Source: a virus | DNA length: 19,044 nt | Direction: 5' to 3' (one strand) | IMG/VR virus record: IMGVR_UViG_3300045988_164095 | Location: 1-19,044 of that record | In this document: positions 1,764-19,044 of the stretch, one piece after another | How the letters are laid out: the number at the start of each line of letters is the position of its first letter | Position numbering within the stretch: position 1 is the first letter of the stretch | Position numbers and translations under genes: made by a program | The notes under the pieces: model-generated | The model's database searches: none | Seen by the model: the letters and a program-made list of their open reading frames with translations, nothing else | What the model was told of the DNA's origin: nothing

Positions 1764-1764
1764 T

Positions 1765-2736: not shown

Positions 2737-2737
2737 T

Positions 2738-2787: not shown

Positions 2788-2813
2788 TTAAAGGAGGCTT
2801 AGGTCTCCTTTAA
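2788..2813 (+). terminator. Intrinsic-terminator-like hairpin
   Basis: The 9-bp stem TTAAAGGAG/CTCCTTTAA has an 8-nt loop and is followed by TTATTTTAAT. Confidence 0.6.
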
Positions 2814-2859
2814 TTATTTTAATACATTAGTAAATTGGTTTATATTTTAAGAAAAAGAT

Positions 2860-2888
2860 ATGTAAAAGTAATGTAAAACTATGTAAAA
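2860..2888 (+). repeat. Three direct repeats of ATGTAAAA directly upstream of the 2890 start codon
   Basis: ATGTAAAA occurs at 2860, 2871 and 2881 (spacing 11 and 10 nt), followed by the gene ATG at 2890. Confidence 0.8.
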
Positions 2889-2889
2889 T

Positions 2890-3282
2890 ATGAACTACAG
2901 TTTAATTCTTCAAAATACAACTACTAAAGAAGTTTATACATTTGATCTTGAAAATCAGAATTATTCTGAGAATATCTACTATAAGTTTGATATTACACTT
3001 CAAGAAGGAATGAGAGACGGTGAATATCAATATATTTTATTTGAAAATCCTAATAAGTATGATATAATCATTGATACTAATAATATTTATAGAAGTGAAT
3101 TGTATGGTAATCCTGTAATATTAGTTACATATTCCAATACTCTCACAAATGGAACAGAGATACTTGTAGCTGGTACTCCCATAAGCATACTAAGCTCAGG
3201 TTTAATGAGGGTAGGTAATTATGATAATAATAAATACCAATATGACTATCAATCAAAATACACAGCTTATGAAAGAAAATAA
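2890..3282 (+). CDS. Hypothetical protein (130 aa), probably virion-associated by position
   Basis: Intact ORF with ATG start and TAA stop, first gene after element copy 1 and directly upstream of the portal gene. Confidence 0.55.
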   Translation: MNYSLILQNTTTKEVYTFDLENQNYSENIYYKFDITLQEGMRDGEYQYILFENPNKYDIIIDTNNIYRSELYGNPVILVTYSNTLTNGTEILVAGTPISILSSGLMRVGNYDNNKYQYDYQSKYTAYERK

Positions 3283-3292
3283 AAGTAAAATA

Positions 3293-4360
3293 ATGATGTC
3301 AGCCATAGATCCTTTCATTCAATCTAACATCGTTCTTCCAACGGAAACAAAGAAAAGAGGTTCTGATATGATAATGTGAGGAGAAGATAATAAATATCCA
3401 TTATATCTATGGGATTTATATTTAAATGTTGCCACTCTCCAATCCATTATTAATGGTTCTGCTGACTTTATTGTTGGTAACGATGTTAAATGTAATGCTC
3501 CAGGATTTGAAGTAGTTGTAAACAAGAAAGGTGAAACAATAGTTGATATAATGAGAAAAATCACTATTGATAAGATGATATTCGGAGGTTATGCTATCCA
3601 AGTAATTAGAGATATGCTTGGAAGAGTTGCAGAGATCTATCATATTGATTTTATGAATGTAAGGTCAAGCGAAAAGAATGATATATTATATTATGCAACT
3701 GATTGGACAGCTTGGTCTGTAAAAGCTATAAAATATCCAAAATTTGGAGCTGGGGATGAAAATCCAGCTAGTATATTTTATAATAAAGGTTATATAACAA
3801 GAGGAGTATATCCTATTCCTGTTTATGGAGCTGCTATTTTATCTTGCGAAACTGAGAAAAATATTAATGAATTCCATTTAAATAACATCAATAATGGATT
3901 TATGGGTAATCTTATTATTAACTTTAATAATGGGGAACCTACAGATGAAATTAGAGAGGAGATTGAGAGGAATATTAATGAGAAGTTCTCTGGTTATCAG
4001 AATGCTGGCAGAATATTGATTTCATATAATGCAGATGAGGCAAATAAGACTACTATTGAAAGATTAGATTCTGATGATTTTGATGAGAAATATCAATCAT
4101 TATCTGAGAGAACCAGAGATCAAATATTCTGTGCCTTCAGAGCTAATCCTTCGTTGTTCGGTTTAAACTATAGCTCAGGATTTAATGAAAATGAGTTTAA
4201 TGAAGCATTTAAGCTATATAATCGTACTTTTGTACGCCCAATACAATCAGAAATTTGTGACTCATTTGATAAAATCTTCGGCATTAAGAATAGTATTACT
4301 ATTGAACCATTTAGTTTAACTCCAAAAGGAATGTCAGACAATGCAGAAAATGTTGAATAA
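3293..4360 (+). CDS. Portal protein (355 aa, one in-frame TGA at 3377)
   Basis: ATG at 3293 is in frame with ORF-track 3551..4360, and only a TGA (MIM-TGA-GEDNKYP) interrupts the frame. The length and sequence (YPLYLWDLY, SERTRDQIFCAFRANPSLFG) recall HK97/PBSX-type portals (Phage_portal family). Confidence 0.7.
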
Positions 4361-5003
4361 TTATACAGTGTACTGCCATAAGAATATAGCTGATAATAAA
4401 TTATATTTTGGAATAACATCACTTACTTTAAATAATAGATGGGGAACTAAAGGTCAAGGTTACAAGAATAATCTTTATTTTAGCAGAGCAATTAAAAAAT
4501 ATGGTTGAGATAATTTTGAGCATATTATAATTAGAGATAATCTTCCAGAAGCTTGTGCTAAGACTTTAGAAAAGATTCTGATTTATAAGTATAATACTAG
4601 AAATCCAAAATATGGGTATAATTTAACTGATGGAGGAGACGGTACTTGTGGATATTCTTTTTCACAAGATTATAAAGATAGTCTTAGAATTATAAGATCA
4701 GGAGAAAATAACTCATTTTATGGTAAACAGCATTCAGATGAAAGCAAGCGTAAAATGAGGGAGGCAAGATTAGGCAAAACTCCTTGAAATAAAGGTATGA
4801 AACTCTCAGATAAAGAAAAACAACTAATTTCAGAACGTCAGTGCAAAAAAGTATATAAGTATGATTTAGATGGTAATTTTATTTGTGAGTATAAATCAGC
4901 TAAGGAAGCTGGAGAGAAGAATAATGTAGATTCTTCTAGTATATCTAGATCTTGTAGAAAAAATAAACCCTGCAAAAATTATAAATATTATTATGGAATA
5001 TAG
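4350..5003 (+). CDS. GIY-YIG homing endonuclease (217 aa, in-frame TGA at 4506 and 4785)
   Basis: The N-terminus YTVYCHKN..NKLYFGIT is the GIY..YIG motif. It also has AIKKYG-TGA-DNFEH, YGYNLTDGGDG and a NUMOD-like GKTP-TGA-NKG, plus a C-terminal YDLDGNFICEYKSAKEA DNA-binding module. The gene overlaps the portal 3' end by 11 nt and the next gene's start by 11 nt. TAG stop. Confidence 0.85.
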
Positions 5004-5670
5004 AAATGTACTATTAATATCTGAAGATTATATAAAATCAGAATCTAATCTAGACAATAATGTTTCTGGTAAATATCTTCAGTCAGCAATTAAACTTGCA
5101 CAAGATATTGAGCTTCAGTCATTAATTGGAACTAAGCTCTTAGAAAAGATTCAGAAATTAGTAATTGATTGAAAAGATCCAAATAAACCAGTTCATCCAA
5201 TAGAACCTCCTATTTATGATCCTACTTCAATAGATGACCCAGAAAATCATAGATATAAAGAATTGCTAGATTACTATATTCAGCCTTATTTACTTTATCA
5301 AGTATTAAGTGAGATTACTATACCCATCTCATTTAAGCTGAGTAATTTTGGGGTTATGAGGACTGATGATGAGAAAGATTTAACTTCTGATATTAGCCAA
5401 GTTAATCTTATTAAGAAATATTATAGAGATAAAGCAGATTTCTTTAAAACAAGATTACAAAATTGGGTAATTACATATTATAATGATTTTCCTGAATTGT
5501 ATTCTTATAAACCTCTTAAAGATATGTATCCAAATATGTATTCAAGTTCATCTTGCACTATTTGGTTAGGTGGAGCTAGAGGTAAAGGTTGGAGATATAA
5601 TTCTTGTGAAGGTCCTCTGCAAAGAGCTTATGATTTCCCTTCAAGTGATAACAATAAAAAGAGTAAGTAA
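4993..5670 (+). CDS. Putative head-tail connector/adaptor-like structural protein (225 aa, in-frame TGA at 5170)
   Basis: ATG at 4993 is in frame with ORF-track 5263..5670. The N-terminus ISEDYIKSESNLDNNVSGKYLQSAIKLAQDIELQSLIG resembles gp6-like connector N-termini. The functional call is weak. Confidence 0.4.
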
Positions 5671-5671
5671 G

Positions 5672-6097
5672 ATGACGTATTTTGAATTAATAAACAATTT
5701 AAAAGCTTGTGCTCTTGAAGAACCCAATATTAATTTTGTAGGAAGTAAGGATATATATGAACTTAATAGTATCCCAACTATTGAATATAATGTATTTTAT
5801 ATAACTCCAAATACATTTAATATGGATGAGGATACTATTACTTACTCTTTAAATCTCTATTTTATAGCAAGATGGGATGAGACTGATAATAATCAGCTTG
5901 AAGAGCAATCAGCTGGAATATTAGCATTAACTAATATAATTAACCGATTTAATAACCAATATCCAGAAGTTGATATTTCTTATCCTTTAATTTTTACTCC
6001 ATTTTATCAGAAGTTCAAAGATATTTGTACTGGAGTATTTGTTAGAGTTGATTTAGCTGTAGACAACACTCTGGGTACTTGTTCTGATAATATGTAA
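5672..6097 (+). CDS. Hypothetical structural-module protein (141 aa)
   Basis: ATG at 5672 lies 2 nt after the upstream TAA, and the ORF-track start at 5570 is an upstream alternative start inside the previous gene. TAA stop overlaps the next ATG as TAATG. Confidence 0.55.
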   Translation: MTYFELINNLKACALEEPNINFVGSKDIYELNSIPTIEYNVFYITPNTFNMDEDTITYSLNLYFIARWDETDNNQLEEQSAGILALTNIINRFNNQYPEVDISYPLIFTPFYQKFKDICTGVFVRVDLAVDNTLGTCSDNM

Positions 6098-6750
6098 TGG
6101 AAAATAAATTAAACTGGTTTGGAAAGGTATTAGAATGAGTAGATAAATATGGACTGTGGAAAATAATTAAAGGTGGATTTGGATTTATATTTATTTCTTA
6201 TGTAATAATTATAAGTACTAATCCAGGAATAATATATGATAAAGTTGTAAGTTATATAGAAACAGTTCATAATACTAATCAAGTAATACGACAAGAAGCA
6301 GATCTTAAGGTTAGATATATTCTTAAAGATCTTTTAAATGATACGAATGCAGATAGAGCTTGAGTTATTGAGTATCATAATGGCACTTCAGGATTAGGAG
6401 GACTTCCATTCACTTATGGAATTATGAATAGTGAAGAAACAGAACCTGGAGTTGCTCCAGTTTCAAGTCATTATAAAGACTTCCTATTATCTGATTATTT
6501 ATTTATATTAGAAACATCTAAAAAAGGAGGATGATTTGGAGATGTTGAAGATATAAAGGAATTAGATAGAAGAATGTACTATACATTTAAATCTAATGAT
6601 GTTAATAAGATTGCAATATTCTATTTAAAGTCAGAAGATAGAGATATTGGAGTTTTAGGATTATCTTATTGTGATAATGAGATGCCAGTTGATACTTGAG
6701 TAAAACTAAGAGATGCAGGAATTAAAGTAAGTATAATTTTAAATAAATAA
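6097..6750 (+). CDS. Membrane-anchored protein (217 aa, four in-frame TGA), first gene of the putative lysis cassette
   Basis: This gene is absent from the ORF track because of TGA codons at 6136, 6361, 6532 and 6697. Read with TGA=Trp it is one continuous frame from a TAATG start to TAA at 6748. It has an N-terminal hydrophobic helix GGFGFIFISYVIIISTNPGII. Confidence 0.6.
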
Positions 6751-6753
6751 GTT

Positions 6754-6915
6754 ATGAAATATTGGATGAAATATTTAATAGCAATAGTAATTATAATCTT
6801 AGTCTTTTTAATGGTAAAAGTAATTCCATTTTGGATTACATTAGTACTCATAGCACTTGGTGCAGGATGTCATTTATTTTACCGTTATACTATGCTTAAA
6901 GATATTATTAAATAA
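6754..6915 (+). CDS. Holin candidate (53 aa, two predicted transmembrane helices)
   Basis: MKYWMKYLIAIVIIILVFLMVKVIPFWITLVLIALGAGCHLFYRYTMLKDIIK has two hydrophobic helices and a charged C-terminus. Its stop overlaps the endolysin ATG as TAATG. It is too short to appear in the ORF track. Confidence 0.5.
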   Translation: MKYWMKYLIAIVIIILVFLMVKVIPFWITLVLIALGAGCHLFYRYTMLKDIIK

Positions 6916-7367
6916 TGAAATATTTTACTATTAGTGAATTAACAAGATCTGATACAGCTTCTATTAAGAAGATAGATAATACTCCAAATAAAGAGATTAC
7001 TGAACACCTTATAGAGTTAGTCGAGAAACTTTTAGACCCAATCAGAGAGAGATGGGCAAAGTATTGTGATGACAATCAGCTTGGTAACGCAGGCATCAGG
7101 ATTTCCTCTGGTTTTAGAAATAAGGAGCTTAATAAAGCAGTAGGAGGATCTTCAACTTCTGCTCATTTAACAGGGTATGCAGCAGATATATCTCCAATTA
7201 ATGGTAATATGAAAGTATTCCAAAGTTGGATTGCTGAAGCTATTGAAGAATTTGATTTCGACCAGTTGATATATGAAAGGCCTAGGAATGGTATAGCAAG
7301 TTGAATACACTTGGGATTAAAGAATAAAGACGGGATGCAAAGACGACAGAAATTTACTATTATATAA
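6915..7367 (+). CDS. Peptidase M15 (VanY/M15A-like) peptidoglycan hydrolase, endolysin (150 aa, in-frame TGA at 7302)
   Basis: The motif SGFRNKELNKAVGGSSTSAHLTGYAADI matches the SxHxxGxAxD signature. The terminal His is recovered only by reading through TGA (GIAS-TGA-IHLGLK). TAA stop overlaps the next ATG. Confidence 0.8.
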
Positions 7368-7960
7368 TGTTTTACTATTGTTATAAAATAATTTTAACTG
7401 CAGGTACATTAAGAGGCAAGTATTATATTGGGAAAAGGATTTATAGAGGTAAAGACATAAATAAAGATCCATATAAAGGATCAGGAAGGATTATTACTAA
7501 TTATTACAAAAGATTCCCTAATGCATACCAAAAGATTATTTTGGCAACTTGCACTAATGCAGATGAATTATCTAAATTAGAATACAAACTAATTGGAGAT
7601 AAATGAGACACTGATCCTATGTGTTTAAATTTGAAACCTGGAGGAGAAGGAGGCAATTACGGAGTCAAATTTAATTCTGAATGAAAGAAGAAACTGTCTA
7701 ATTCTAATAAGGGAAAGAAACATAATTGCCCAGAATCTTGAAGAGTTAAAGTAGATGCTCATAACAAACAAAGATGTCGTAAAGTAGCTCAGTATGATTT
7801 AGATGGTAATTTTATTCAAGAGTATGAAAGTTGCACTGAAGCAGCCAAATCTGTAGGAACTGATAGAGGAGCTATTAGTAGAGTATGTGGTGGATTAGCA
7901 AATACAGCTAAAGGATTCAAGTGAAGATATGTTAATAAAAAAGAAAAGGAGGGCAAATAA
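7367..7960 (+). CDS. GIY-YIG homing endonuclease (197 aa, in-frame TGA at 7604, 7682, 7739 and 7922)
   Basis: N-terminal YCYKI...GKYYIGKR motif, then NLKPGGEGG and a C-terminal YDLDGNFIQEYESCTEAA...GFK-TGA-RYV module shared with 4350..5003. TAA stop lies inside a terminator hairpin. Confidence 0.8.
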
Positions 7961-7970
7961 CCCTCCTTTT
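7944..7970. terminator. Bidirectional intrinsic terminator between convergent gene blocks
   Basis: The 10-bp stem AAAAGGAGGG/CCCTCCTTTT has a 7-nt loop, with an A-tract upstream and a T-tract downstream. It sits between the plus-strand gene ending at 7960 and the minus-strand gene ending at 7974. Confidence 0.8.
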
Positions 7971-7973
7971 TGT

Positions 7974-8114
7974 TTATTCCATTATCTCAAATAATTTCTC
8001 ATCTTTAGGTATTAATTCTCCAGTTTGTAAATCTACTAAGAATTTACTATTTTCGGGAATTACATAAACGTAATTTACTCCATTTAAGCATAATTTATAT
8101 GTAAAGTACTTCAT
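7974..8114 (-). CDS. Hypothetical small protein (46 aa)
   Basis: MKYFTYKLCLNGVNYVYVIPENSKFLVDLQTGELIPKDEKLFEIME. Its ATG lies 2 nt from the stop of the upstream micro-ORF, and its TAA sits just before the terminator. It is below the ORF-track length cutoff. Confidence 0.4.
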   Translation of the reverse strand: MKYFTYKLCLNGVNYVYVIPENSKFLVDLQTGELIPKDEKLFEIME

Positions 8115-8115
8115 A

Positions 8116-8256
8116 TTAGTCAATATATGTTGCGTTAGGAATCTCTGGTTTGGGTGTTTCTTTTACTTCTTCCCAAACTAAACCTCTATTCTGGTTTTCT
8201 AGTTGAACTATTCTATATTCTAGTTCTTCAAGCTTTTTAAATAAATAATCATCCAT
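8116..8256 (-). CDS. Hypothetical small coiled-coil protein (46 aa)
   Basis: MDDYLFKKLEELEYRIVQLENQNRGLVWEEVKETPKPEIPNATYID, packed tightly with its neighbours. Confidence 0.4.
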   Translation of the reverse strand: MDDYLFKKLEELEYRIVQLENQNRGLVWEEVKETPKPEIPNATYID

Positions 8257-8258
8257 AA

Positions 8259-8420
8259 TTAATCAAATTTAGAAATAAACATATAATCTTTATCTTTTAA
8301 TACTTTATCTATAATATCACCAAATCTTTTAGTAGCCTCTTTACATTCGAGCATTCATTTATCCAATTCTTTAATATACTCTTCTGTTTGTTTAATTGTT
8401 TCTTTAGTATCACTTTCCAT
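8259..8420 (-). CDS. Hypothetical small protein (53 aa, one in-frame TGA at 8355..8357)
   Basis: MESDTKETIKQTEEYIKELDK-TGA-MLECKEATKRFGDIIDKVLKDKDYMFISKFD. It starts 19 nt downstream of the helicase stop. Confidence 0.35.
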
Positions 8421-8438
8421 ATCACAAATATAATATTT

Positions 8439-10160
8439 TTATTTATTAAATACAAATTTTTTATTAATAATTACATAACCTTCAGTTTGTTTACCATTTA
8501 CTCTTTTCTGGCATTTTTTAACTTCATAATATTTATCAATTTCTGTTGCTTTTGGAGTAATAGTAATATCACTAATTTCATAAGCTTCTTTAACAAACTT
8601 TTTAATATCAGCGTTAGAATACCACATTCCAAGAGTAATTGATTGATTTAACTTCTTAGCTGCTTTATTATCTGCACTTTTATTTGATTTCTTTAATAGA
8701 GCATCTTTAATATCCGAAATGCAATATTTCAAGCTTGCCATCTTTTCGAATCCTAATTTACTAATAGCTTCTGGTAACCAAGGATATTTAATAATAGCAT
8801 CATTTAAGAGTGGAGTATTCAGTTTAAATTTATTTTCCCATTCTGTTCTAACTTCTTTAATTAGTTCTTTAAATGGTTTATTATCAGATTCAAAATCAAT
8901 CTTAATAGAGTTGTCTTCACATTCTACTACTTTTTTAAATCCGTTCTTTATATATTCTTTATTAAGATTCGTTCTAATAGAATATAAACCTCTTGTCACT
9001 TTAAAGTTAAAAATATCTACCTTAGCCATATTTGGATCAAATGTAAATGTAAAATCATCATTTACTTGGATATAAGTATCAGATGTAAATTCTTTAAGTT
9101 TCTTTCTTGCAACTTCAGGCATTGCATTGTAAGCATCTACAGCAATCTTAGTTTCCTCAATATTCTGGATATTCTTCTTTTTAAAGTCTTCATAACTAAT
9201 ATCTGCATATCTTGTTGCTGAGTAAAGATGAGTTATCCAGTTTAAATATTTACTATTTCTAATTCTACCAGCAATCTGTTGAATAGAAGTTGAAATGTCA
9301 AGAAGAGTTTGTGCTTTTTGAGCATCACTTACTACTACAATTCTTCCATTTTCATCATAAATATCAGAACCTTCAAATACTGTAGAAGTTAATAAATTTA
9401 TTTTCTTAGGTTCATCTAATACTGTAGAATTATGAATTGATAATTTGGTTTTATTGTTTTTGGAATATATAACTCTGGTATTCTCTTCTGTAAGTTTAGC
9501 TTTCTGAATAAGATTCTTTATAAAGTCTACAGAATTTACAAATATATAAACATTACCTTCGACTTGATTATTAAGAACAGCATTAATTAATTTAATAGTT
9601 GAAGCTTCAACATTCTTACATTTAACGGCTTGTACCTTAGTTTCAATAACATCATCCCATTCTTGTTTTACTAATTCTAAATCTTTTAATTCATCTAATA
9701 CAAACTCTTCTTCAAGAGGAGTAGCAGTCATAAATGTAAAATCTTTAAATAATTTATAGTTCTCTAAAACAGGCTTAATAGCATCCTTTCTAAAGCTATA
9801 CTGATTAAATAGTATATGATATTCATCTACTAATAAACTATATTCTTTAGTATTAACTGCAGAAATAACTTTTGGAAGTGAGTTATATGTAACAATAATT
9901 TTAGGGCATTTAACACTATCTACGTAATCTTTAATCTCTTTAATAGTAACTCCAGCATAAACTCCAAATATCTTCTCAGTACGTCTTTCATTTGGATATT
10001 GTTGAAGTTTATTTTCAACTAAGCTAGTAAATGGAACACAAATAACATAAGGCTTATTACATTCAATTGCCATTGAAGTTCCTCCACATCCAACTTTTCC
10101 TTTATCAAATAAACAGTTAGTTGGCAACTCATTAATCAAATTGTTTAAATATGTTTTCAT
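8439..10160 (-). CDS. Superfamily-2 DExH-box helicase (573 aa)
   Basis: Motif I-like KVGCGGTS, motif II LLVDEYH, motif III FMTATP and motif VI QIAGRIRN. It has no in-frame TGA (five Trp, all TGG) and a TAA stop. Confidence 0.8.
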   Translation of the reverse strand: MKTYLNNLINELPTNCLFDKGKVGCGGTSMAIECNKPYVICVPFTSLVENKLQQYPNERRTEKIFGVYAGVTIKEIKDYVDSVKCPKIIVTYNSLPKVISAVNTKEYSLLVDEYHILFNQYSFRKDAIKPVLENYKLFKDFTFMTATPLEEEFVLDELKDLELVKQEWDDVIETKVQAVKCKNVEASTIKLINAVLNNQVEGNVYIFVNSVDFIKNLIQKAKLTEENTRVIYSKNNKTKLSIHNSTVLDEPKKINLLTSTVFEGSDIYDENGRIVVVSDAQKAQTLLDISTSIQQIAGRIRNSKYLNWITHLYSATRYADISYEDFKKKNIQNIEETKIAVDAYNAMPEVARKKLKEFTSDTYIQVNDDFTFTFDPNMAKVDIFNFKVTRGLYSIRTNLNKEYIKNGFKKVVECEDNSIKIDFESDNKPFKELIKEVRTEWENKFKLNTPLLNDAIIKYPWLPEAISKLGFEKMASLKYCISDIKDALLKKSNKSADNKAAKKLNQSITLGMWYSNADIKKFVKEAYEISDITITPKATEIDKYYEVKKCQKRVNGKQTEGYVIINKKFVFNK

Positions 10161-10190
10161 AATTTTAATAATTTAAATAGTTAAAGTTTT

Positions 10191-10240
10191 TGTCAATATT
10201 TTTATTTTCTTACTACTAAAAGTGAGTAAAAAACTTGACA
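10191..10240 (+). repeat. Copy 2 of the 50-bp element (invariant 20-mer at 10221..10240)
   Basis: TGTCAATATTTTTATTTTCTTACTACTAAAAGTGAGTAAAAAACTTGACA. It has the same plus-strand orientation as copies 1 and 3 although both flanking genes are on the minus strand. Confidence 0.9.
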
Positions 10241-10256
10241 GTAAGATTCAAAAAGT

Positions 10257-10275
10257 GGCAGGATTTTCACCTGCC
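10257..10275 (-). terminator. Terminator-like hairpin downstream of minus-strand ORF 10290..10445
   Basis: The stem GGCAGG/CCTGCC has a 7-nt loop. On the minus strand it is followed by ACTTTTTG, and on the plus strand it has no T-tail. Confidence 0.5.
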
Positions 10276-10289
10276 TAGAAGTAATAGAA

Positions 10290-10445
10290 TTACTTATTTT
10301 TACTAAAATAAGCTGCAATTGTAGGAGAGTTAGCTAATAAGTTAGCAAATTGTTCATCAGAACAAGTAATTGAATTCTCCATAGTGCTCTTAATTGTATT
10401 ATCTTCAATAATAATTGTTCCATTGTTTTTAATCGAATTTTTCAT
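10290..10445 (-). CDS. Hypothetical small protein (51 aa)
   Basis: MKNSIKNNGTIIIEDNTIKSTMENSITCSDEQFANLLANSPTIAAYFSKNK lies about 40 nt downstream of a consensus Bacteroides-type promoter and is followed by a hairpin. Confidence 0.45.
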   Translation of the reverse strand: MKNSIKNNGTIIIEDNTIKSTMENSITCSDEQFANLLANSPTIAAYFSKNK

Positions 10446-10486
10446 AGTCTTTAAAATTTTAATTATAATAATCTATTTTGATAGTA

Positions 10487-10518
10487 CAAATATACAACAT
10501 TTTTATTTAAAATCCAAA
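10487..10518 (-). promoter_or_regulatory. Bacteroides-type promoter (-33 TTTG, 20-nt spacer, -7 TATATTTG)
   Basis: The minus strand reads TTTG gattttaaataaaaatgttg TATATTTG tactat, upstream of the ATG at 10445. Confidence 0.6.
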
Positions 10519-10567
10519 TAATTCGGGTATTATTTTTAATAAAAAATTATTTTTTTTCTTTACACTA

Positions 10568-10598
10568 CAAATATAATAATAAATTTTTATTCTACAAA
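10568..10598 (-). promoter_or_regulatory. Second, tandem Bacteroides-type promoter (-33 TTTG, 19-nt spacer, -7 TATATTTG)
   Basis: The minus strand reads TTTG tagaataaaaatttattat TATATTTG tagtgt. Its -33 box lies inside the last codons of CDS 10587..11072. Confidence 0.5.
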
Positions 10599-11072
10599 AC
10601 TTTTCTTGATTTTTCTTACCCAAAGTTTTGTTAATTTTTTGCCATTCTCTTTTTCGTATCTTTGATTAGCATATTTTATTCAGTCTCAATTTAGTGCATT
10701 TAATTGAATTGCAGCTCTATTTAATGATACTCCAGATAAGCACAATTCTACTAATTTATCTATATTCTCATTATATCATTCTTTTTTGCTTTGTTTATTT
10801 ATTTTTATATTATTTGCACTCTTAAAATCTGCTAATAGCTCTACAATTAATTCATCTGGAAGTTTTAACCATTCTGAATTACTCTTAGTTTTATATGCTC
10901 TATATTTATCTCTATAATAATTTTCATCATCTCTATTTCCTTCTTTTGCTATAAAAAATTCTATCATCTCATTTGGAATAGTATTTTTATAAGCAGTTAG
11001 TCTGCCACTTATATTAGTAGTGTAACCAACTTTAATAAAATTCGTTTTAGTTAATTTAATTACGTAAATCAT
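10587..11072 (-). CDS. T5orf172 (GIY-YIG-like, MUG113) domain protein with C-terminal helix-turn-helix (161 aa, three in-frame TGA)
   Basis: The N-terminus IYVIKLTKTNFIKVGYTTNISGRLTAYK...SEWLKLP matches the T5orf172 pattern. The ORF-track stop at 10776..10778 is TGA. Read-through adds IDKLVELCLSGVSLNRAAIQLNALN-TGA-D-TGA-IKYANQRY... (HTH-like) up to TAA at 10587. Confidence 0.7.
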
Positions 11073-11148
11073 ATTGTTTTTATTAATATATAATAAAAAT
11101 ACAAATAGTAATATTTTTTTGAAAATAATAAAAATAATACCTAAAAAA

Positions 11149-11180
11149 TTTGGAAATTGAATAAAAATGTATTATCTTTG
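11149..11180 (+). promoter_or_regulatory. Bacteroides-type promoter (-33 TTTG, 20-nt spacer, -7 TATCTTTG)
   Basis: TTTG gaaattgaataaaaatgtat TATCTTTG tagtac lies in the divergent intergenic region, 45 nt upstream of the ATG at 11225. Confidence 0.6.
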
Positions 11181-11224
11181 TAGTACAATAATAAACAAGT
11201 ATTAACATATTAAATAATAAAATT

Positions 11225-11464
11225 ATGAAAAAAATAAATAAAATTTTAGTTGGTCTTTTAATTGCATCTTCAATTGTTGCAGGTTTTAGAGTAAATGAAG
11301 TCTATCAGGAAAGACAACATAAAACATTTGAATTAAGATTAGAAAGAGCAGAATTAAAACATAAATTAGATTCAGTAATGTGGGTTAATCCAGCAAGTGA
11401 AGAAGTATCTAATTTATATGAAGAATATTGTGATTTAACACTTAAAATTAATAATATAAAATAA
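11225..11464 (+). CDS. Small membrane-anchored protein (79 aa)
   Basis: It has an N-terminal hydrophobic segment ILVGLLIASSIVAGF, and its TAA overlaps the next ATG as TAATG. Confidence 0.55.
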   Translation: MKKINKILVGLLIASSIVAGFRVNEVYQERQHKTFELRLERAELKHKLDSVMWVNPASEEVSNLYEEYCDLTLKINNIK

Positions 11465-11901
11465 TGAAAACAGATATAAGAAGCTTAGTCTTTACAAAGA
11501 ATCTATTTAAAGAGAAATTTAATATAGATATAGAATGATGTAAAGACGATTACTCCAGATATGATGGAACATTTAATTGGAATGGAATTGATTATATAAT
11601 TGAAGTTAAAAGGAGAAGATTTAATTCTAATAAATATCCAACCACTATTATTAATAGGGATAAATTTGATATGCTATCAAGAAATAATTCTATATTAGTA
11701 ATAATATTTGATGATGGAGTATATATATTTAAAGATATAAAACAAGCCTTTATAAAGGATTCTATGAAATATGGTTGTTCTACAACAGATTTTGGAGGAA
11801 CTTATGGCTATTCATTAAAAACAGAGTTGTCTTTAAAGAAAGCCATTAAGATAGATGTAAATACAGAATTTAGTAATTATATAGCAAATGATAGCCTATA
11901 A
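11464..11901 (+). CDS. Putative PD-(D/E)XK-fold nuclease (145 aa, in-frame TGA at 11536)
   Basis: ATG at 11464 is in frame with ORF-track 11671..11901. The segment YDGTF...IDYIIEVKRR fits a D...(D/E)xK nuclease core. The functional call is tentative. Confidence 0.4.
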
Positions 11902-12382
11902 AAGAATACTTAATTTTGAAAACTACCAAATTGGAACTGATGGCTCAATATGAAGTTTAAGAGCATCAGTTCCAAAGAGGTTAAAACCTCAAGTAAAAAC
12001 TAATGGGTACTTTACAGTAACATTATATAATAAAAATTTGAAAAAGAAGTGTTATATACATAGATTAGTAGCTGAAACTTTTATATCTAATCCGAATAAC
12101 TATCCTTGTATAAATCATAAGGATGAAAATAAATCAAATAATAATGTAAGTAATTTAGAATGGTGTACTTATAATTATAATAATAATTATGGAACTCATA
12201 ATCTGCGAGCTGGATATAGTCATAAGAAACCAATACTGCAATTACTAAATGGAATAGTTATTAAAAGATGGGATTCAACAATAGATGCTGAGAGAGAACT
12301 AAATATACAATCTAGAAATATTGTAAAGGTTCTTAAAGGGCAGCGAAAAACAGCAGGAGGATATATGTGAACATATGAGTAA
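11888..12382 (+). CDS. HNH homing endonuclease with NUMOD4-like N-terminus (164 aa, in-frame TGA at 11951 and 12368)
   Basis: It has FENYQIGTDGSI-TGA-S (NUMOD4-like), HRLVAETFISNPNNYPCINHKDENKSNNNVSNLEW (HNH_3-like) and a C-terminal KGQRKTAGGYM-TGA-TYE. The true stop is TAA at 12380. Confidence 0.8.
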
Positions 12383-12683
12383 TAACGAAATTGTAGAAAA
12401 GTACTATCCATTTATTATGGAACTTAAGCAAAAATTTGGTGCAGATGATGACTGTGTTCAAATGATTTTTGTAGAAATACTAGAGTATTCAAATCCAAAA
12501 TTAAATCAGCTTGATAGCAAAAATGAATTGAAATTTTGGATTACAAGATTATTTAAGAATTATTGGTTTAGTAAAACAAGTAGATATTACTATACCTATA
12601 AGAAATATTATGAGATTGTTAAAGAACCACTTGAACAACAAAATGACGAATTGGAGGATTGATTAAATGAAACGGAAGATTAA
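12375..12683 (+). CDS. Sigma-70-family region-2-like protein (102 aa, in-frame TGA at 12660)
   Basis: ADDDCVQMIFVEILEY and FWITRLFKNYWFSKTSR resemble sigma regions 2.1 to 2.4 of ECF-type factors. No region 4 is present in this frame. Confidence 0.5.
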
Positions 12684-12912
12684 TATTGACGATTTACTTA
12701 CTGAGTATGAAATAGACTATAGTATGTTTACAAATATGGATGATAGACTATTAAGTATATATCCAAAATGACTTGAGCTTAATAAGGCAGATAAGACAGT
12801 AATCATATTATATGCTGAATATCACAGTTATAGAGAAGTGGGAAGAATATTAGGAATTAGTCATACTACAATTCAAAGATTTATTAAACAAATAAGAGAG
12901 AGATTATGTTAG
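12667..12912 (+). CDS. Sigma-70-family region-4-like HTH protein (81 aa, in-frame TGA at 12769)
   Basis: DKTVIILYAEYHSYREVGRILGISHTTIQRFIKQIRERL matches a region 4.2 helix-turn-helix. The gene starts inside the last 17 nt of the region-2 ORF in the +1 frame. TAG stop. Confidence 0.55.
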
Positions 12913-13235
12913 AATTATTTATAATAGCAGTAATAATAGTCTTTATAATTGATTTATCTGGGGCTTTGGATAGTTTTAAACATAGTATTTGAAAAAGACT
13001 ATTTAAAGGTATGCCTTATAAAGGAGATTGAAGACTAAAACCTTTAGATTGCAGTTTATGTATGACTTGGTGAATTGGATTAATATATATTCTTATTACA
13101 AGTCAATTTTCAATTTTAATGGTTGGATATATTGCACTATTAGCATTTATGACTCCAATTATTAAAGATATTATGATATTATTAAAAGATGCATCTACTA
13201 AGCTGATAGATGTTATATACAAACTTATTGATTAA
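12906..13235 (+). CDS. Membrane protein (109 aa, three in-frame TGA)
   Basis: This gene is absent from the ORF track. Hydrophobic segments are LELFIIAVIIVFII, WIGLIYILITSQFSILMVGYIALLAF. It contains LDCSLCMT-TGG-TGA-IG, with adjacent TGG and TGA codons. TAA at 13233. Confidence 0.55.
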
Positions 13236-13324
13236 AAATTATATTTTATGGAAACAGAAGTTATTTATCACTACAAGAATGGAAAGTTAATTTCTATATT
13301 TACTTATACTAAAAAGCGCTAATT

Positions 13325-13660
13325 ATGAAACAATTAACAGAAGAGCAGTTTAAATATTTAAGAGGATTTGAAGATAGATTTGTAACGGCAACTAAGTCTA
13401 ATTATTGCAGAAATGTACAAAAGCAGGATGTAATTAAGCTTAAAGAGATTTATGAATGTTTAATTGAACAAGAATATAGAATGAGCGTAGCTTGTGCTAC
13501 TTGTATACTTAATCTTATAAAGAGGATTGCCCCAATCTATTTTGAATATCAAGAAAAACTAAAGGAAAATGAAAGTAAAGAATCAGGAACTGCCGAAGAA
13601 AATAGGGAGACCGAAAAAGGAAGAAGTAAAAGAGGATCAAATAGACGAACAAAAAACTAA
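13325..13660 (+). CDS. Hypothetical protein (111 aa)
   Basis: Intact ORF whose last 92 nt overlap the next gene in another frame, so the 3' extent is uncertain. Confidence 0.45.
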   Translation: MKQLTEEQFKYLRGFEDRFVTATKSNYCRNVQKQDVIKLKEIYECLIEQEYRMSVACATCILNLIKRIAPIYFEYQEKLKENESKESGTAEENRETEKGRSKRGSNRRTKN

Positions 13661-14021
13661 ATATCTTTATGCAGCAAGATTATTTAATAAAGGGTGGTCC
13701 AGAAATAAAGTAAGTGAGGAACTTCAAACTAAATATGGAGTTGGGCAAACTACTGCTGCTAAATATATTAGAGAAGCTTATAAGATTATTGCAGATAAAA
13801 ACGATAATCTTATAAAGAATTTAAGACATATACAATTAACAAGATTGGAAACATTGTTGGATATTGCTATTAGTAAAAATGATGTAAGATCTGCTACTGA
13901 GGTTATTAAAACAATAAATTCTATGTTTGGATTAAATCAACCAGAAATTCAAGTTAATATTCAAAATAATGAATGCCAATTTAAATTTGGAGATCCTATT
14001 ATAAATGACAAGGATATATAA
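13569..14021 (+). CDS. Putative terminase small subunit (150 aa)
   Basis: It has an N-terminal basic segment KKIGRPKK, then an HTH-like GWSRNKVSEELQTKYGVGQTTAAKYIREA. It lies directly upstream of and overlaps the large terminase gene. Confidence 0.5.
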   Translation: MKVKNQELPKKIGRPKKEEVKEDQIDEQKTKYLYAARLFNKGWSRNKVSEELQTKYGVGQTTAAKYIREAYKIIADKNDNLIKNLRHIQLTRLETLLDIAISKNDVRSATEVIKTINSMFGLNQPEIQVNIQNNECQFKFGDPIINDKDI

Positions 14022-15252
14022 AGGATATAGGCCATTTATGTACCAATATAAGGTTCATATAGCTATGGCAGATGCTTATAGATCTGGAAGGATATTTACA
14101 ATTAAAGCTAAACGACAAGTAGGTAAATCTTTCTTAGCTGAAAATGAATTATTACGATTTGCAATTAACTATCCAAAAACAGTCAATTGTATAGTAGAAC
14201 CTACTCTTGGACAATCAAGAAAAGTGTTTAAAGAAATAGTTAATGCTATAGCTGAAGCAGATATTCTTAAACGTAAGAATGAAACTTTGCTTGAATTAGA
14301 GTTTAATAATGGCAGTTCTATATTATTTAGATCTGGAGAACAAATGGATTCGTTACGAGGATTCTCTGTAAGTGGATTACTTGTATTAGATGAGGCTGCT
14401 TACTTAAAAGATGAAGTATTTGAAATTATTAAACCTACTACTGATGTGTGGTCTGCTCCAATATTAATTATTAGTACTCCAAGGTTCCGAGAGGGTTTCT
14501 TTTATGACTGCTTTACTAAAGGGTTAGATCCGAAATATGACAAGTTCTATAAATCATTTGATTGAGCTTTAGAAGATACATCTATGCTTTTAGATAAAGA
14601 GAAGTTAGAGATGTATCGACTTACAACCTCAAAAAATAAATTTAGAACCGAATATTTAGGGGAATTTGCAGATGATGATGGATGTTTATTTAATAATATA
14701 GCTAATTGCATAATTGAGAAAAAACCAGATTATCAGAGTCTTTATATAGGAATAGACTGGGCTACTGGAAGTGGTAAAGACTATACTTGTGTTACTGCTT
14801 TAAATGAATCTGGGCAAATGGTCTTTATAAAGTATTTTAACGATAAAACTCCAACAGAGCAAGTTGATTTATTAACAAATATACTAACTGAGTATCAAGG
14901 ATTTATAAAGATTGTGCAAGTTGAACAAAACTCAATTGGTAGTGTCTTCTATGATATGTTAATTCGGAAGAATCCGAAAATCAGGATTATACGATTCTTA
15001 ACTACTAATAAGAGTAAGGCAGATATAGTTAATAAGCTTCAAGCTGCTTTGGAGAATGAAAAGATAGGATTATTAAAAGATGATAAACTTTTAAATGAGT
15101 TAAGACTATATGAAGCTTCATATAATCCAAAAACTGGAAATGTTAGTTATAATGCTCCATCTGGATTTAATGATGATACAGTAATTTCATTAATGCTAGC
15201 CTATGACTCATTAAATACAAACAAAGGACATTATAATATTAAAATTAAATAG
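14005..15252 (+). CDS. terL: Terminase large subunit (415 aa, in-frame TGA at 14563)
   Basis: ORF-track pieces 14005..14565 and 14584..15252 share one frame. Walker A is AKRQVGKS and Walker B is LLVLDEAAY. Nuclease-domain acidic motifs are YIGIDWA and GFNDDTVISL. The TGA falls in KSFD-TGA-ALED. TAG stop. Confidence 0.85.
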
Positions 15253-15253
15253 T

Positions 15254-15895
15254 ATGATAAAATCTTGGAATGAAATGAATTTAGCTCATTATAGAAAACT
15301 ATTGGATGTAATTAGAAAAGAATGAGAAAATGAATTAGATATGAATTTAGCTATGGTATCTGTACTTAGTGATATTTCTTTAGAAGAAATTCAAAATATG
15401 GAGCTGAATAAATTACAAGAATTAATTAACAATCTTAAATTCGTAGAGAGTACATATAAACCTAAAACTCCAGAAACTAAATATATTATTGGAGACAGGG
15501 AATATAAAGTCTTTTTTAATGTTAATAAGATGACTGCAAGTCAATACATAGACTTCCAGAATTTTTATAAGAAGTATGATGATTATATGCCAAATCTAGC
15601 TGCTTGCTTTTTATTACCAGAAGGTAAGAAGTATGGAGAAGATTATGATCCTTTGGATGAAGCAGAGTTTTTGAGTAATCTTCTAACCATTGATGTATTT
15701 TCAGATATAATGTTTTTTTTTGTAAACTTATTGCGACTATCAACTCTGAGTACCCTTCACTCTTCGGAAAGAGAGATGAAGAAGAAATTGAAGAAAACAA
15801 AGAACAAATTAGAAAGGAGAAAGATCCTAAAGAGCTTAATTCAGGCGAGGAGATTAATACTTTTACTCAAAAATGAAGCTGAATTATCTGAATAG
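15254..15895 (+). CDS. Hypothetical protein, zero-frame product (213 aa, in-frame TGA at 15323)
   Basis: ATG at 15254 is in frame with ORF-track 15341..15895. A T9 run lies at 15713..15721. The zero-frame tail after the run is low-complexity and K/R-rich, ending at TAG 15893. Confidence 0.5.
15713..15721 (+). other. T9 homopolymer: candidate -1 ribosomal frameshift or transcriptional slippage site
   Basis: Zero-frame codons are atg ttt ttt ttt gta. A -1 shift enters the frame that stays open to 16038. Confidence 0.45.
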
Positions 15896-16038
15896 ATAAA
15901 GTAAGTGAGGTTACTAAATTTAATTGGCATCAAGTTTATGATATGCAAATTAAAGAGTTCTTAAATACAATTTGTTATGTTATAGATAAAGCTAATGAAG
16001 AAAATAGACAAATTGAAGAATGAAAACGAAAACATTAA
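15721..16038 (+). CDS. -1 frame extension of gene 15254 (105 codons, four in-frame TGA), with no start codon of its own
   Basis: This frame is open from 15679 to TAA at 16036, and its first ATG is not until 15943. Its translation is CKLIATINSEYPSLFGKRDEEEIEENKEQIRKEKDPKELNSGEEINTFTQKWSWIIWIDKVSEVTKFNWHQVYDMQIKEFLNTICYVIDKANEENRQIEEWKRKH. It ends 3 nt before element copy 3, mirroring the stop-to-element spacing at copy 1. Confidence 0.45.
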
Positions 16039-16040
16039 AA

Positions 16041-16090
16041 TGTCAGTTTTTATTTATTTTAACTACTAAAAGTGAGTAAAAAACTTGACA
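16041..16090 (+). repeat. Copy 3 of the 50-bp element (invariant 20-mer at 16071..16090)
   Basis: TGTCAGTTTTTATTTATTTTAACTACTAAAAGTGAGTAAAAAACTTGACA. Confidence 0.9.
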
Positions 16091-16093
16091 CTT

Positions 16094-16118
16094 AAATAGG
16101 GAGTAAATCTCCCTATTT
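16094..16118 (+). terminator. Intrinsic-terminator-like hairpin
   Basis: The 10-bp stem AAATAGGGAG/CTCCCTATTT has a 5-nt loop and is followed by GTGTTT. Confidence 0.6.
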
Positions 16119-16160
16119 GTGTTTAGATACCAACCTATAAATTAATATATTTTAACAAAA

Positions 16161-16649
16161 ATGAATATTCAAGAACTAAATTTTCCAAATTTAAATGAGT
16201 TATTAAGACGTTGAGGAGAACTCATAATTTCTTTATATAGACAGGAATTGGTTCAAACAAGGACTGATGATACTGGATCATTAGGTAATAGTTTAAATTA
16301 CATTGTTGAGACCCAAAATGGGGATTATGAAGTTAATGTTAGTTTATTAGATTATTGGAAATACGTTGAAGAAGGCAGACATTCTGGTAAGTTCCCTCCA
16401 CTTAATGATATAAAGAGTTGGATTAAAACTAAGCCAATTATTCCCAGACCTTATAATGGTAAGTTACCAACAATAGATCAGCTTACATATTTAATTGGAA
16501 GAAAGATACATCTTCAAGGAATTCAAGGTAAACATCCATTATCAAATACTATAGAATATATAGAAAATAACTATATGGAGCTTCTTGATGATGCTATAAC
16601 TAAAGATCTTCAAGGACAAGTAGATTATTATTTATTTAAAAACTTTTAA
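16161..16649 (+). CDS. HK97 gp10-like head-tail joining / tail-completion protein (162 aa, in-frame TGA at 16212)
   Basis: ATG at 16161 is in frame with ORF-track 16248..16649. YWKYVEEGRHSGKFPP resembles the (Y/F)VE(F/E)G core of the HK97-gp10 family. The functional call is moderate. Confidence 0.5.
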
Positions 16650-16651
16650 AA

Positions 16652-18832
16652 ATGGCATTTATACCAAGTAAATTAGGAATATATAATGCATCAAGGAGTT
16701 TTCCTGTTAAATGGAATAATCCTGGGTGGGGAATTACTGGAGAATATGATTATTGGACTTGGGGAGATGATTATACTGAAGAAGGGCCTTTAGAGGTAAC
16801 TATACAAGAGCCTAGTACTTCTGGATGTACAATACAATTTTTATCTCCCACAACAATAACTACTGATTCTTCTACTGTATTTCATTTTTATCCTAGAGGT
16901 CTTACTACTGCTTTATTAATGGAAGATTTACCAATTAATTTACATAGTAAATCTCCTGGATTCTATCCTGCTAATGGTAGTATTAATGTACCAAATACTG
17001 GTGGAGAATATACAGTAGAGTATATATTAAATAGATCAGATATTATTAAATGAGATGCAGCAGTTGTTAATGCTACAGCTTTAGTTAATATAGAAGTTCT
17101 GGATTGGGATTCTTGCTCTATTAAGTTTAAATTTACAGTAAGAGCTAATACTCAATGGAATACAGATTTAATTGGAACTATTCAATTAGGAGCTTATTAT
17201 GACACTAATAAGTTTATTAGTTATAGTTACGGCTTTAAAATTGAAAAAAGTAATACTCCAGAAGATTTAAAGTTAGTAGTAACTCCTTCATCTGGAACTT
17301 ATGGAGCATCTGCTTTTGTTACTGAAGAATTCCATTTAAGTACAACTAAAGCAGAAGAAACAATTACCTCATTTAATGTTACCTGCCCTCAAGCTAGTAA
17401 TATTAAAAAGGATATTGTTGATAACTATTTTGTATTAACTGTTCCAGAGAATAAAACTACTAATAATTTGGAGTTTAGTGCAATGGTTACTGCAACAACT
17501 TCTGGGGGTTATAACCTTGAAGCTACAGTTCCAATTAAACAAGCTGCAACATCTTTAATGATTCCTAATACTAATTATGAAGTAAGTTGAACTGCATCTA
17601 CATTAAATATAATTGGTACAGGCTCAAATAACTTAGATGATGTTGTATTTAGTATTCCTGTAGGTTGGATTAGTGGACAGAAGATAACTGTGAATCCTCA
17701 AGGTGTAGCAACTATTAGTTTGAACATTGCAGAAAATTCAGGTTTATCTTCTAGACAAGCAACTATTGGAGTATCTGTTATAAAGAATAGTTCAAGTATT
17801 ATTAATTTATCTATTAATATTACACAATCTGTTAAATCTGATATATTTCCTATTTGAAAAGATTATGTTTGGGAAGAGATTATTAGTTCAGATTTTATTG
17901 AATATCATTTAGATTATGCAGGGGATATGGTCTATGCTGGAAAAGCTTATAAATATCCTGAAACAGATAGAGTAGAGTTTTTATTAAATAATGTAGCTGA
18001 AAATTATCTATCTAATGGAATTATATTTAATACATCAAAAACAATAGTATCACCAGAATATTTAAAACCATTTACATTAATAACTTCATCTGGAAATGAA
18101 AAGCCAATTACTTTTTTCAATGATTGGAGTTATAAAGACAGAGATCTAACTAAAGGCACTATGTTAAGTGATCCTATTACTGGTTTAGTTGATCCAAGGC
18201 AGTATTTAGTATCAAGTTGAATTCTACCAACTGGAACTGGAGTTATTAATAGATTCTTTTATATAGATGGAGTACAATCTGCTATGGATATTAGTTTAAA
18301 TTCTGGAATTAATGGATATACATATACAGAAGATTTAAGTAATAAATTATGGCCTTGTGGAAGTTATTTAATAGTAGGATTTGTAGAAGGTGGAAACATT
18401 AGTGATAGACAGATTAGATATGATATAGATACTACAGGTAAAGATTATGTGTTATATTATACTAATTCAGCAGGTGGATGAGATTCATTACTTGTTGAGG
18501 GTAATGTTAAAAAGAATGATGATATTAAATCTGAAACATATACTCGTAAGGTATTAAATACATCACAAGAGTTTGCAAGAAATAAGTATTTGAATACTAT
18601 AACTTCAAGCTGGATTCTTTATACTGGTTATTTAAATGATATTCAAGCTTCTAAGATGTTTAATCTAATTGAGAGTACCAAAGTATATTTGCATAATCTT
18701 AAAGATAATACTATCACTCCAGTATTGATTACAGATACAAATTGTGAATATAAAACTTATACTAATCAAGGTAAAAACAAGTTCTATTATACAATTAATG
18801 TAGAAGCTTCTCAAGATACTTATCGTAAATAA
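16652..18832 (+). CDS. Large virion structural protein (726 aa, five in-frame TGA) with BACON/Ig-like repeats, probably tail or baseplate
   Basis: ORF-track pieces 16652, 17927, 18284 and 18590 are all in one frame. I translated 17054..17926 codon by codon and found no TAA or TAG. In-frame TGA codons are at 17051, 17588, 17855, 18218 and 18479. The segment S-TGA-TASTLNIIGTG...VGWISGQKITVNPQGVATISLNIAENSGLSSRQATIGVSV fits a BACON-like pattern. Confidence 0.65.
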
Positions 18833-18834
18833 TT

Positions 18835-19044
18835 ATGAGAAAGAATATTAAACTATTTATTGCAAATAAAGAGGTTGACTGTAGTGAGGGAATTAGTCTT
18901 CCTATGACATATACTGTTGAGGATTTCCAAAACCCCACTATAGTCAAGAACTCGTTTAGTAAAACGATTTCTATACCTGGCACAAAGAATAATAATAAGA
19001 TTTTTGGAGAGATTTATAAGTTAGATAGATTTCTCCATATAAAA
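18835..19044 (+). CDS. Virion structural protein, N-terminal part (3' end lies outside the window)
   Basis: ATG lies 2 nt after the upstream TAA, and the frame is open to the window end (MRKNIKLFIANKEVDCSEGISLPMTYTVEDFQNPTIVKNSFSKTISIPGTKNNNKIFG...). Confidence 0.5.
   Translation, partial: MRKNIKLFIANKEVDCSEGISLPMTYTVEDFQNPTIVKNSFSKTISIPGTKNNNKIFGEIYKLDRFLHIK

Follow-up and report, generated by a model that had tools for sequence, protein, structure and literature searches.

Overlapping phage genes that probably encode the two halves of an ECF-like sigma factor

Two overlapping genes and their resemblance to sigma factors

The 19,044 nucleotides (nt) of DNA analysed here, from an uncultured gut phage (IMG/VR record IMGVR_UViG_3300045988_164095, positions 1 to 19,044; 'the window' below) contain two short overlapping genes, ORF1 and ORF2, which probably encode the two halves of a sigma factor of the extracytoplasmic function (ECF) type, i.e. 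a group 4-like factor whose gene is split within the flexible linker between sigma-2 and sigma-4 and whose products would direct host RNA polymerase to phage promoters. At 28% G+C, the window has fragmented open reading frames (ORFs) under translation table 11, and these merge under table 4 into a compact phage gene map. The order runs from an HNH homing endonuclease gene through ORF1, ORF2, a small membrane protein and a putative small terminase to the large terminase (PHROG terminase large subunit, E 2e-36) and the structural genes (Table 1); the small terminase, which has no family match, is placed by its position between the membrane protein and the large terminase. Relative to ORF1, the frame of ORF2 is +1, and it is closed by a TAA codon at 12664-12666 just before the ORF2 ATG. 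An initial annotation of this DNA had recorded the coordinates, the separate frames, the 17-nt overlap, the TAA before the ATG and the HNH gene directly upstream with its 8-nt overlap, all of which hold when checked against the sequence, the code-4 ORFs and, for the HNH gene, the PHROG families.

The first of the two proteins consists of a sigma-2-like domain (residues ~1-80) and an acidic tail (residues 82-102) corresponding to the first part of the sigma-2/sigma-4 linker, and the second of a 36-residue N-terminal segment, corresponding to the end of that linker, followed by a sigma-4-like helix-turn-helix (HTH; residues 37-80, nt 12775-12906). ORF2 passes the cut-off of Pfam Sigma70_r4_2 (26.5 bits vs 25.7, E 5e-6) and also matches the generic HTH families HTH_50 (E 1.1e-7), HTH_23 and HTH_38; its close homologues carry the JGI name 'RNA polymerase specialized sigma subunit', and there is a weak match (E 0.015) to the Xpf-type NCBIfam model NF005385 ('positive control sigma-like factor'). 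On the NCBIfam sigma70-ECF model TIGR02937, which has 165 positions, residues 4-94 of ORF1 align with positions 4-104 (E 8.2e-4, 19 bits) and residues 37-80 of ORF2 with positions 117-161 (E 2.4e-5, 24 bits), and the two therefore match complementary halves of one sigma model; a conceptual ORF1-ORF2 fusion covers positions 4-161 (E 3.7e-10, 39.7 bits). The sigma reading of the initial annotation comes through this comparison of hidden Markov models with ORF1 as the N-terminal half of sigma70-ECF, ORF2 as the C-terminal half and a member of Sigma70_r4_2, and Sigma70_r2 left unmatched. The textbook region-4.2 HTH that it had seen in ORF2 is borne out by the Sigma70_r4_2 score, and the domain total of about 180 amino acids (aa) agrees, as it had supposed, with the size of an ECF factor.

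For ORF1 the relationship is more remote. All five of its NCBIfam matches are sigma families, TIGR02937 being the best, and among the 119 standalone family members of ~100 aa, TIGR02937 is matched by 14 and Sig70_bacteroi1 by 11, the only recurrent non-sigma match being a single family found in two members. One 93-aa relative, P0147, has a weak precomputed Pfam match to Sigma70_r2. When the ORF1 family is aligned by hhalign with the N-terminus of its single-chain relatives (see below), the probability is 99.7% (E 3e-25), and the ORF2 family (alignment A4) aligns with their C-terminus at 96.3% (E 1.9e-9). An AlphaFold2 (AF2) model of ORF1 is a five-helix bundle with a predicted local distance difference test score (pLDDT) of 79, the block means reaching 87-96 over residues 1-60; its BFVD matches are all phage proteins of 160-232 aa that lack characterisation and probably represent fused relatives. 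The N-domain has its own signature, W..R..KN.WFSKTSRYYY.YKK, and ORF1-type N-terminal halves have no Pfam domain in the source databases and are named at most 'hypothetical protein'. Taken together, ORF1 is a putative sigma-2 domain, an assignment well supported by transitive, remote sequence homology, with ORF1 by itself remaining below every curated threshold. Of the earlier region-2 claim, then, the part that stands is the placement of ORF1 among sigma families and on the N-terminal half of TIGR02937; the homology is remote, and no curated cut-off is passed.

Table 1. Features of the ORF1/ORF2 locus (window coordinates)
Feature	Position	Strand	Details
HNH homing endonuclease gene	11888..12382	+	164 aa; PHROG HNH endonuclease, E 2.3e-39; shares 8 nt with ORF1
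ORF1	12375..12683	+	102 aa; ATG 12375, TAA stop 12681-12683; from sequence and code-4 ORF listing
Shine-Dalgarno GGAGGA for ORF2	12653..12658	+	Within the 3' end of ORF1, 8 nt 5' of the ORF2 ATG
ORF1 in-frame TGA (Trp96)	12660..12662	+	
ORF1/ORF2 overlap	12667..12683	+	17 nt, ATGAAACGGAAGATTAA; proposed site of translational coupling
ORF2	12667..12912	+	81 aa; ATG 12667, TAG stop 12910-12912; from sequence and code-4 ORF listing
ORF2 in-frame TGA (Trp35)	12769..12771	+	
Small membrane-protein gene	12906..13235	+	109 aa; shares 7 nt with the end of ORF2; from code-4 ORF list

Conservation of the split and single-chain relatives

Do the two frames yield one chain or two? The comparison rests on 35 informative loci, namely 26 from IMG/VR, four further contigs, and L031-L034 and L036; L035, the context of protein P0249, was left out as an uninformative, low-coverage contig of 871 nt. 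In none of the 35 does the gene order change, and the two genes always lie side by side, with their ends overlapping or abutting. All 30 close loci have these two ORFs with a shared stretch of 17 nt, even where ORF1 is only 67-78% identical; in the 26 from IMG/VR, including those with ORF1 protein identities of 67-75%, the overlap ends in GAAGATTAA. The split is likewise kept in L031-L034 (46-59% G+C) and L036 (32% G+C), which use the standard code; among these distant relatives the called +1 overlaps measure 41-47 nt, whereas L033 has ATGA as a 4-nt overlap in the other frame and L036 leaves a gap of 1 nt between the ORFs, and the range with the close loci included is a +1 overlap of 17 to 47 nt, an ATGA overlap or a gap. 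The GGAGGA preceding ORF2 is kept in most of the 26 IMG/VR loci, L010 having TGAGGA, L018-L023 AGAGGA and L024-L026 only GAAGAAA. Homologues of ORF2 measure 81-88 aa, apart from a few shorter fragments, and those of ORF1 98-102 aa, except P0001 (157 aa), in which an internally deleted HNH remnant reads into ORF1. In diverged pairs (dS ~1) the ratio of nonsynonymous to synonymous substitution rates (dN/dS) is 0.12-0.22 for both ORFs (0.12-0.18 for ORF1), and by this measure both are under purifying selection. The exact ORF2 sequence is present on 501 contigs, and the split structure is identical in dozens of independently assembled contigs from differing samples and sources.

Judged by these sequence comparisons, the products are two polypeptides, predicted to be translationally coupled. 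This is also how the initial annotation had read the locus, and the reading is sustained by ORF2's own Shine-Dalgarno sequence and ATG, by the split in 35 loci and by the lack of a conserved shift site; its proviso that a sequencing indel might have broken a single gene is refuted by the population data, in which the split is identical in the 30 close loci.

The two genes do not always travel together as alleles. Locus L004 has 100% identity in ORF1 and 90% in ORF2, and L014 has 85% in ORF1 and 99% in ORF2, i.e. ORF1 and ORF2 alleles reassort separately. Across L001-L026 the ORF1 tail and the 17-nt junction are nearly invariant. The ORF2 variants of 81, 84, 85 and 88 aa diverge directly after the HTH recognition helix, and these length variants may reflect differing promoter specificities.

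Both genes contain an in-frame TGA, and the initial annotation had thought TGA-dependent translation of such a factor unusual. The window holds 35 in-frame TGA codons vs 45 TGG codons, with TGA spread over most genes, and its 26 genes all stop at TAA or TAG, never at TGA. The TGA codon of ORF1 is TGG in L018-L023, and codon 35 of ORF2 is TGA in 24 loci and TGG in six. TGA is therefore read as Trp, in an ordinary, genome-wide code-4 usage that is presumably common with the host, and it is no device peculiar to ORF1 or ORF2. TGA-dependent regulation of ORF2 was considered and rejected in favour of a code-4 host because no tRNA or suppressor tRNA gene was found in the window or in related loci.

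The single-chain relatives came from an exhaustive search with the ORF1-family profile (alignment A1; threshold E <= 1e-3), which returned 481 cluster representatives, mostly of ~100 aa. Among the best 150 of these 481 are 16 longer proteins (156-245 aa), and in at least 13 of them an ORF1-like domain is joined through an acidic linker to an HTH at the C-terminus that shows the 'L..Y.......L....GIS..T' pattern of ORF2. TIGR02937 is matched over nearly its full length by 14 of 15 single-chain proteins (best E 7.3e-11); some of them match PHROG sigma-factor families (phrog_1740, 1.4e-9), two of the 15 match NF005385 (E 0.004), and one matches a PHROG 'anti-termination protein Q-like' family. For P0167, one of the single-chain proteins, AF2 gives a model with a pLDDT of 85 that is disordered only in the linker (residues 85-100); its structural matches in the PDB are sigma factors, mostly ECF, with a probability of 1.00 in the top four and ~170 aligned columns. 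Of the 50 PDB matches listed, 48 are sigma factors or RNA polymerase complexes that contain one, among them M. tuberculosis sigma-H and sigma-L, Bartonella RpoE, E. coli sigma-E, AlgU and SigW; the other two are integrative models whose titles do not name the matched chain. According to the hhalign coordinates, the break between ORF1 and ORF2 falls within the disordered acidic linker of these single-chain relatives.

In finding single-chain relatives that carry both halves, the search answers the earlier question of whether the gene is fused elsewhere, and it qualifies the earlier view of two-subunit sigma factors as rare, as within this large phage family most members are split. When ordered by N-domain identity, single-chain and split proteins are intermixed; the 191-aa P0275, for instance, is nearest to the 93-aa P0147, which is confirmed as split in locus L036. 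Because of this interleaving, repeated fission or fusion is suggested, and we tentatively propose, while regarding it as somewhat doubtful, that single-chain and two-chain forms have interconverted repeatedly in a large and so far undescribed family of phage ECF-like sigma factors. No annotated relative is available among the GenBank phages, since a megablast of the whole window against them gave no match, tblastn yielded no usable result with ORF1, with ORF2, with a fused homologue or with a distant split one, and the identity of the large terminase to its counterpart in any cultured phage does not exceed 29%.

A candidate mode of action, its rivals and the genomic setting

How would two such genes provide one working sigma factor? 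To what was computed here, i.e. the homology, the conserved split, the purifying selection and the lack of a conserved frameshift site, we add a chain of inferred steps that concern RNA polymerase binding, association of the halves, promoter identity and timing. One mRNA would give rise to two polypeptides, the ribosome either re-initiating after the TAA of ORF1 or starting afresh at the GGAGGA-ATG of ORF2, and coupling of the two translation events would keep the amounts of the products roughly matched. By analogy with known ECF sigma factors, ORF1 would bind the host RNA polymerase at the beta-prime clamp helices and recognise a -10-like element, and ORF2, with its HTH, would bind at the tip of the beta flap and recognise a -35-like element; the linker would survive as two stumps, one being the acidic tail of ORF1 and the other the first 36 residues of ORF2. 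Both halves together could then redirect the host core polymerase to phage promoters. The packaging and structural, i.e. late, genes are the likely targets because the pair heads the long rightward block of membrane protein, terminase and structural genes.

The window contains one repeated intergenic element, which is present in three copies of ~63 nt on the + strand (2735-2797, 10188-10250 and 16038-16100), with ~40 nt further downstream in each. It folds into a long AU-rich hairpin (TGTCAGTTTTTA...TAAAAAACTTGACA) followed by a GC-richer, terminator-like hairpin (folding z-scores -2.8 to -5.8); a T-run follows the second hairpin in copies 1 and 3, not in copy 2, which sits between two minus-strand genes. 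An exact 20-mer of the element, AGTGAGTAAAAAACTTGACA, recurs in L004, L005, L014, L016, L022 and L027 and is probably the 'conserved 20-mer' named in the initial annotation. A search of Rfam with the element gave no match; it may act as a promoter or terminator, as a put-like antiterminator or as a small RNA. Footprinting of the spacer at 13236-13324, in the search for a promoter, showed the spacer to be absent in diverged relatives.

Several points weigh against a sigma function for the pair. The curated cut-off of TIGR02937 lies at 42.9 bits, and the fusion (39.7) and the single halves all fall below it. A Pfam scan of ORF1 returned no match, Sigma70_r2 included; ORF1-only profiles (A1 and A3) found no sigma factor among PDB sequences, only spurious matches; and a Foldseek search of the ORF1-only model against the PDB gave nothing significant, with sigma-28 appearing only at E 9.6. 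No cognate promoter was found in the window, where the only repeated intergenic element is more like a hairpin plus terminator than an ECF promoter. Sigma-fold phage proteins can, moreover, serve as activators instead of true sigma factors, and binding of either half to RNA polymerase, or to the other half, is predicted by analogy.

The main rival reading, which we consider unlikely and yet worth keeping in sight, takes the pair for a sigma-derived activator and/or antiterminator that would act alongside the host's primary sigma factor and not in its place. The pair sits just upstream of the terminase genes, where RinA-type late activators are also placed (PMC3152322), and the layout of the three hairpin elements, each just 5' of a terminator-like hairpin, would suit antitermination. 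The sub-threshold sigma-model scores point in the same direction, and there are precedents in the late activators RinA, ArpU and LtrC and in the split GafY/GafZ of the Caulobacter gene transfer agent vs the single-chain GafA of Rhodobacter. However, no RinA-, ArpU- or LtrC-named family was found for ORF1 or ORF2 in Pfam, NCBIfam or PHROG at the thresholds used, the sigma70-ECF models matched by the halves and by the fused relatives are full-length ones that include the core-binding sigma-2 part, and the model of a fused relative aligns end to end with ECF sigma factors from holoenzyme structures. A further alternative is that the two genes have independent functions, ORF2 being a small HTH regulator and ORF1 an unrelated helical protein such as a modulator that binds RNA polymerase or sigma. 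The generic HTH matches of ORF2 and the marginal sigma similarity of ORF1 alone would fit it; we nevertheless hold it to be quite improbable, given that the genes are adjacent and in the same order in 35 of 35 informative loci from very different phages and that the halves are covalently joined, again in this order, in single-chain relatives interleaved with split forms.

The remaining alternatives concern the junction itself. A programmed +1 frameshift within the 17-nt overlap would produce a single-chain sigma factor of ~178 aa, as the sole product or beside the halves, and it would account for the +1 frame of ORF2 in the window and most relatives, for the strong conservation among close relatives of the overlap ending in GAAGATTAA, and for the full-length sigma70-ECF match of a conceptual fusion made at this very place. 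Yet ORF2 has a conserved ATG with GGAGGA at a standard distance, and a TAA closes the +1 frame directly before it; no known +1 shift motif is present, GAU-UAA offering no re-pairing and the Shine-Dalgarno-like sequence lying ~22 nt upstream of the stop; and with an ATGA overlap in the other frame in L033 and a gap in L036, the junction is not a conserved recoding site. Because junction geometry and frame relation vary in this way among relatives, a conserved programmed frameshift is very unlikely. Hardly any credence is left for an assembly or sequencing indel or a decaying pseudogene: a bare change of frame, with nothing else, is what speaks for it, and it is refuted by the population data, i.e. 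by an identical structure in dozens of contigs, an ORF2 sequence found on 501 of them and dN/dS well below 1. The two halves of a split ECF-type sigma factor are the reading that we favour.

The neighbours of the pair differ in how closely they are tied to it. The HNH gene is missing upstream of ORF1 in L012, L014-L017 and L026, where an upstream gene of 145 aa abuts ORF1 directly, and in L012 and L026 an HNH gene with 44% identity is placed downstream of ORF2 instead; the upstream HNH gene is a facultative mobile insertion and stands outside the sigma system. The small membrane protein, which has the motif 'PYK...PLDCSLC', forms with the sigma pair a conserved three-gene synteny, and its homologue follows the sigma-2/sigma-4 pair even in the distant L036 (3074-3394). 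One possibility, offered as conjecture, is that it is an anti-sigma-like partner.

Further observations concern the genome as a whole. Pfam matches of the counterparts in L027 point to NUMOD-type endonuclease-like genes at 4341-5003 and 7367-7960, which share 48 nt at 85% identity (4848-4895 / 7781-7828), and with the HNH gene this makes at least three homing-endonuclease-type genes in a genome of ~30 kb. Compared with the IMG/VR contigs of ~30 kb, the genome appears to be circularly permuted. This phage also occurs on contigs of 148 kb and 193 kb (those behind L009 and L027), which could be a prophage within a host contig or an assembly concatemer. A 573-aa gene on the minus strand (8439-10160) has, by eye, a Walker A-like motif; it had no PHROG match at E <= 0.001, and no Pfam match is recorded for its homologues in L027 and L028. 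None of its five Trp codons is TGA, a count that is not significant alone.

Known two-subunit systems and the significance of the pair

Sigma factors are nearly always single chains. Canonical ECF (group 4) factors, such as E. coli sigma-E, M. tuberculosis sigma-H and sigma-L, and B. subtilis SigW, resemble the pair in domain content, which in the pair is a putative sigma-2-like helical bundle, an acidic flexible linker and a sigma-4 HTH, with a total size of ~180 aa. The pair differs from them in having these domains on two polypeptides, in the remoteness of the similarity, in the absence of a Pfam Sigma70_r2 match, in an N-domain motif of its own and in that no anti-sigma gene is evident beside ORF1/ORF2.

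The closest parallel in two-subunit design is the cellular SigO-RsoA (YvrI-YvrHa) of B. subtilis, to which the initial annotation had also pointed. In SigO-RsoA the region-4 protein comes first in gene order, unlike ORF1/ORF2, whose order is collinear with an intact sigma gene. Each ORF of the present pair matches one half of the sigma70-ECF model, and the genes overlap; SigO-RsoA is not phage-encoded, and, in contrast to it, the ORF1/ORF2 family has many single-chain members interleaved with split ones. An ECF classification paper describes SigO-RsoA's functions of sigma-2 and of sigma-4 as residing on two polypeptides that are expressed together (PMC7826278, citing MacLellan et al. 2009), uses it as an example of split domains and states that phage ECF-like factors escaped that survey (PMC7826278). 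No SigO- or RsoA-named family was among the NCBIfam matches at E <= 10, a search made without direct sequence comparison and with the presence of such models in the library unverified.

Among phages, a functional analogue of the pair is found in T4, where gp55 (sigma-2-like) and gp33 (a separate beta-flap-binding protein) together replace the sigma factor. The term 'split sigma' also occurs in a paper about late transcription of phage Mu. In T4, gp33 does not bind DNA, the system needs the sliding clamp and the genes are not known to lie next to each other; by contrast, ORF2 carries an HTH of the sigma-4 type. Neither ORF1 nor ORF2 matched a gp55- or gp33-named family in Pfam or PHROG at E <= 10, with HMMER filters dropping most matches above E ~0.1. 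The phage sigma-like late regulators (Xpf of PBSX, whose gene lies just upstream of the terminase genes, and PHROG 1740, 351 and 1190) are also small sigma-like proteins, but they are single polypeptides and their similarity is weak. With RinA, ArpU and LtrC, the position upstream of the terminase genes is the only feature in common. A likeness in architecture exists with the phage-like late-gene regulator of gene transfer agents, in which GafA is one protein and GafY/GafZ are two adjacent genes in another lineage (PMC11150451). GafY works via host RpoD (domains 3-4) and GafYZ anti-terminates, with sigma replacement not reported (PMC11150451).

Searches of the literature on sigma factors that are split, bipartite or made of two subunits gave no sigma-2/sigma-4 gene pair encoded by a phage. 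Neither the domains nor the principle of two subunits is new; the feature that appears undescribed is that, in a large phage family, the split form prevails and single-chain forms alternate with it. Its importance depends on biochemical confirmation of sigma function. Recognising the N-terminal halves would improve the annotation of many uncultured gut phages and help in predicting late promoters, and, if the reading is true, the halves would be compact, orthogonal split-sigma parts for synthetic AND-gate circuits.

Does a sigma factor need its two domains on one chain? The ECF sigma-2/sigma-4 linker threads through the active-site cleft and the RNA exit channel and is thought to aid initiation and promoter escape. 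A natural family spread over hundreds of phage lineages, cut within this linker and accompanied by close single-chain relatives, is a system in which the role of covalent linkage can be tested. If the pair is indeed a split sigma factor, SigO-RsoA, the one well-studied cellular two-subunit sigma factor, would be extended to viruses. If, further, single-chain and two-chain forms have interconverted repeatedly, a linker that joins sigma-2 covalently to sigma-4, the equivalent in ECF factors of the sigma finger, would be dispensable for function in nature, and phages could reassort their -10-reading and -35-reading modules independently.

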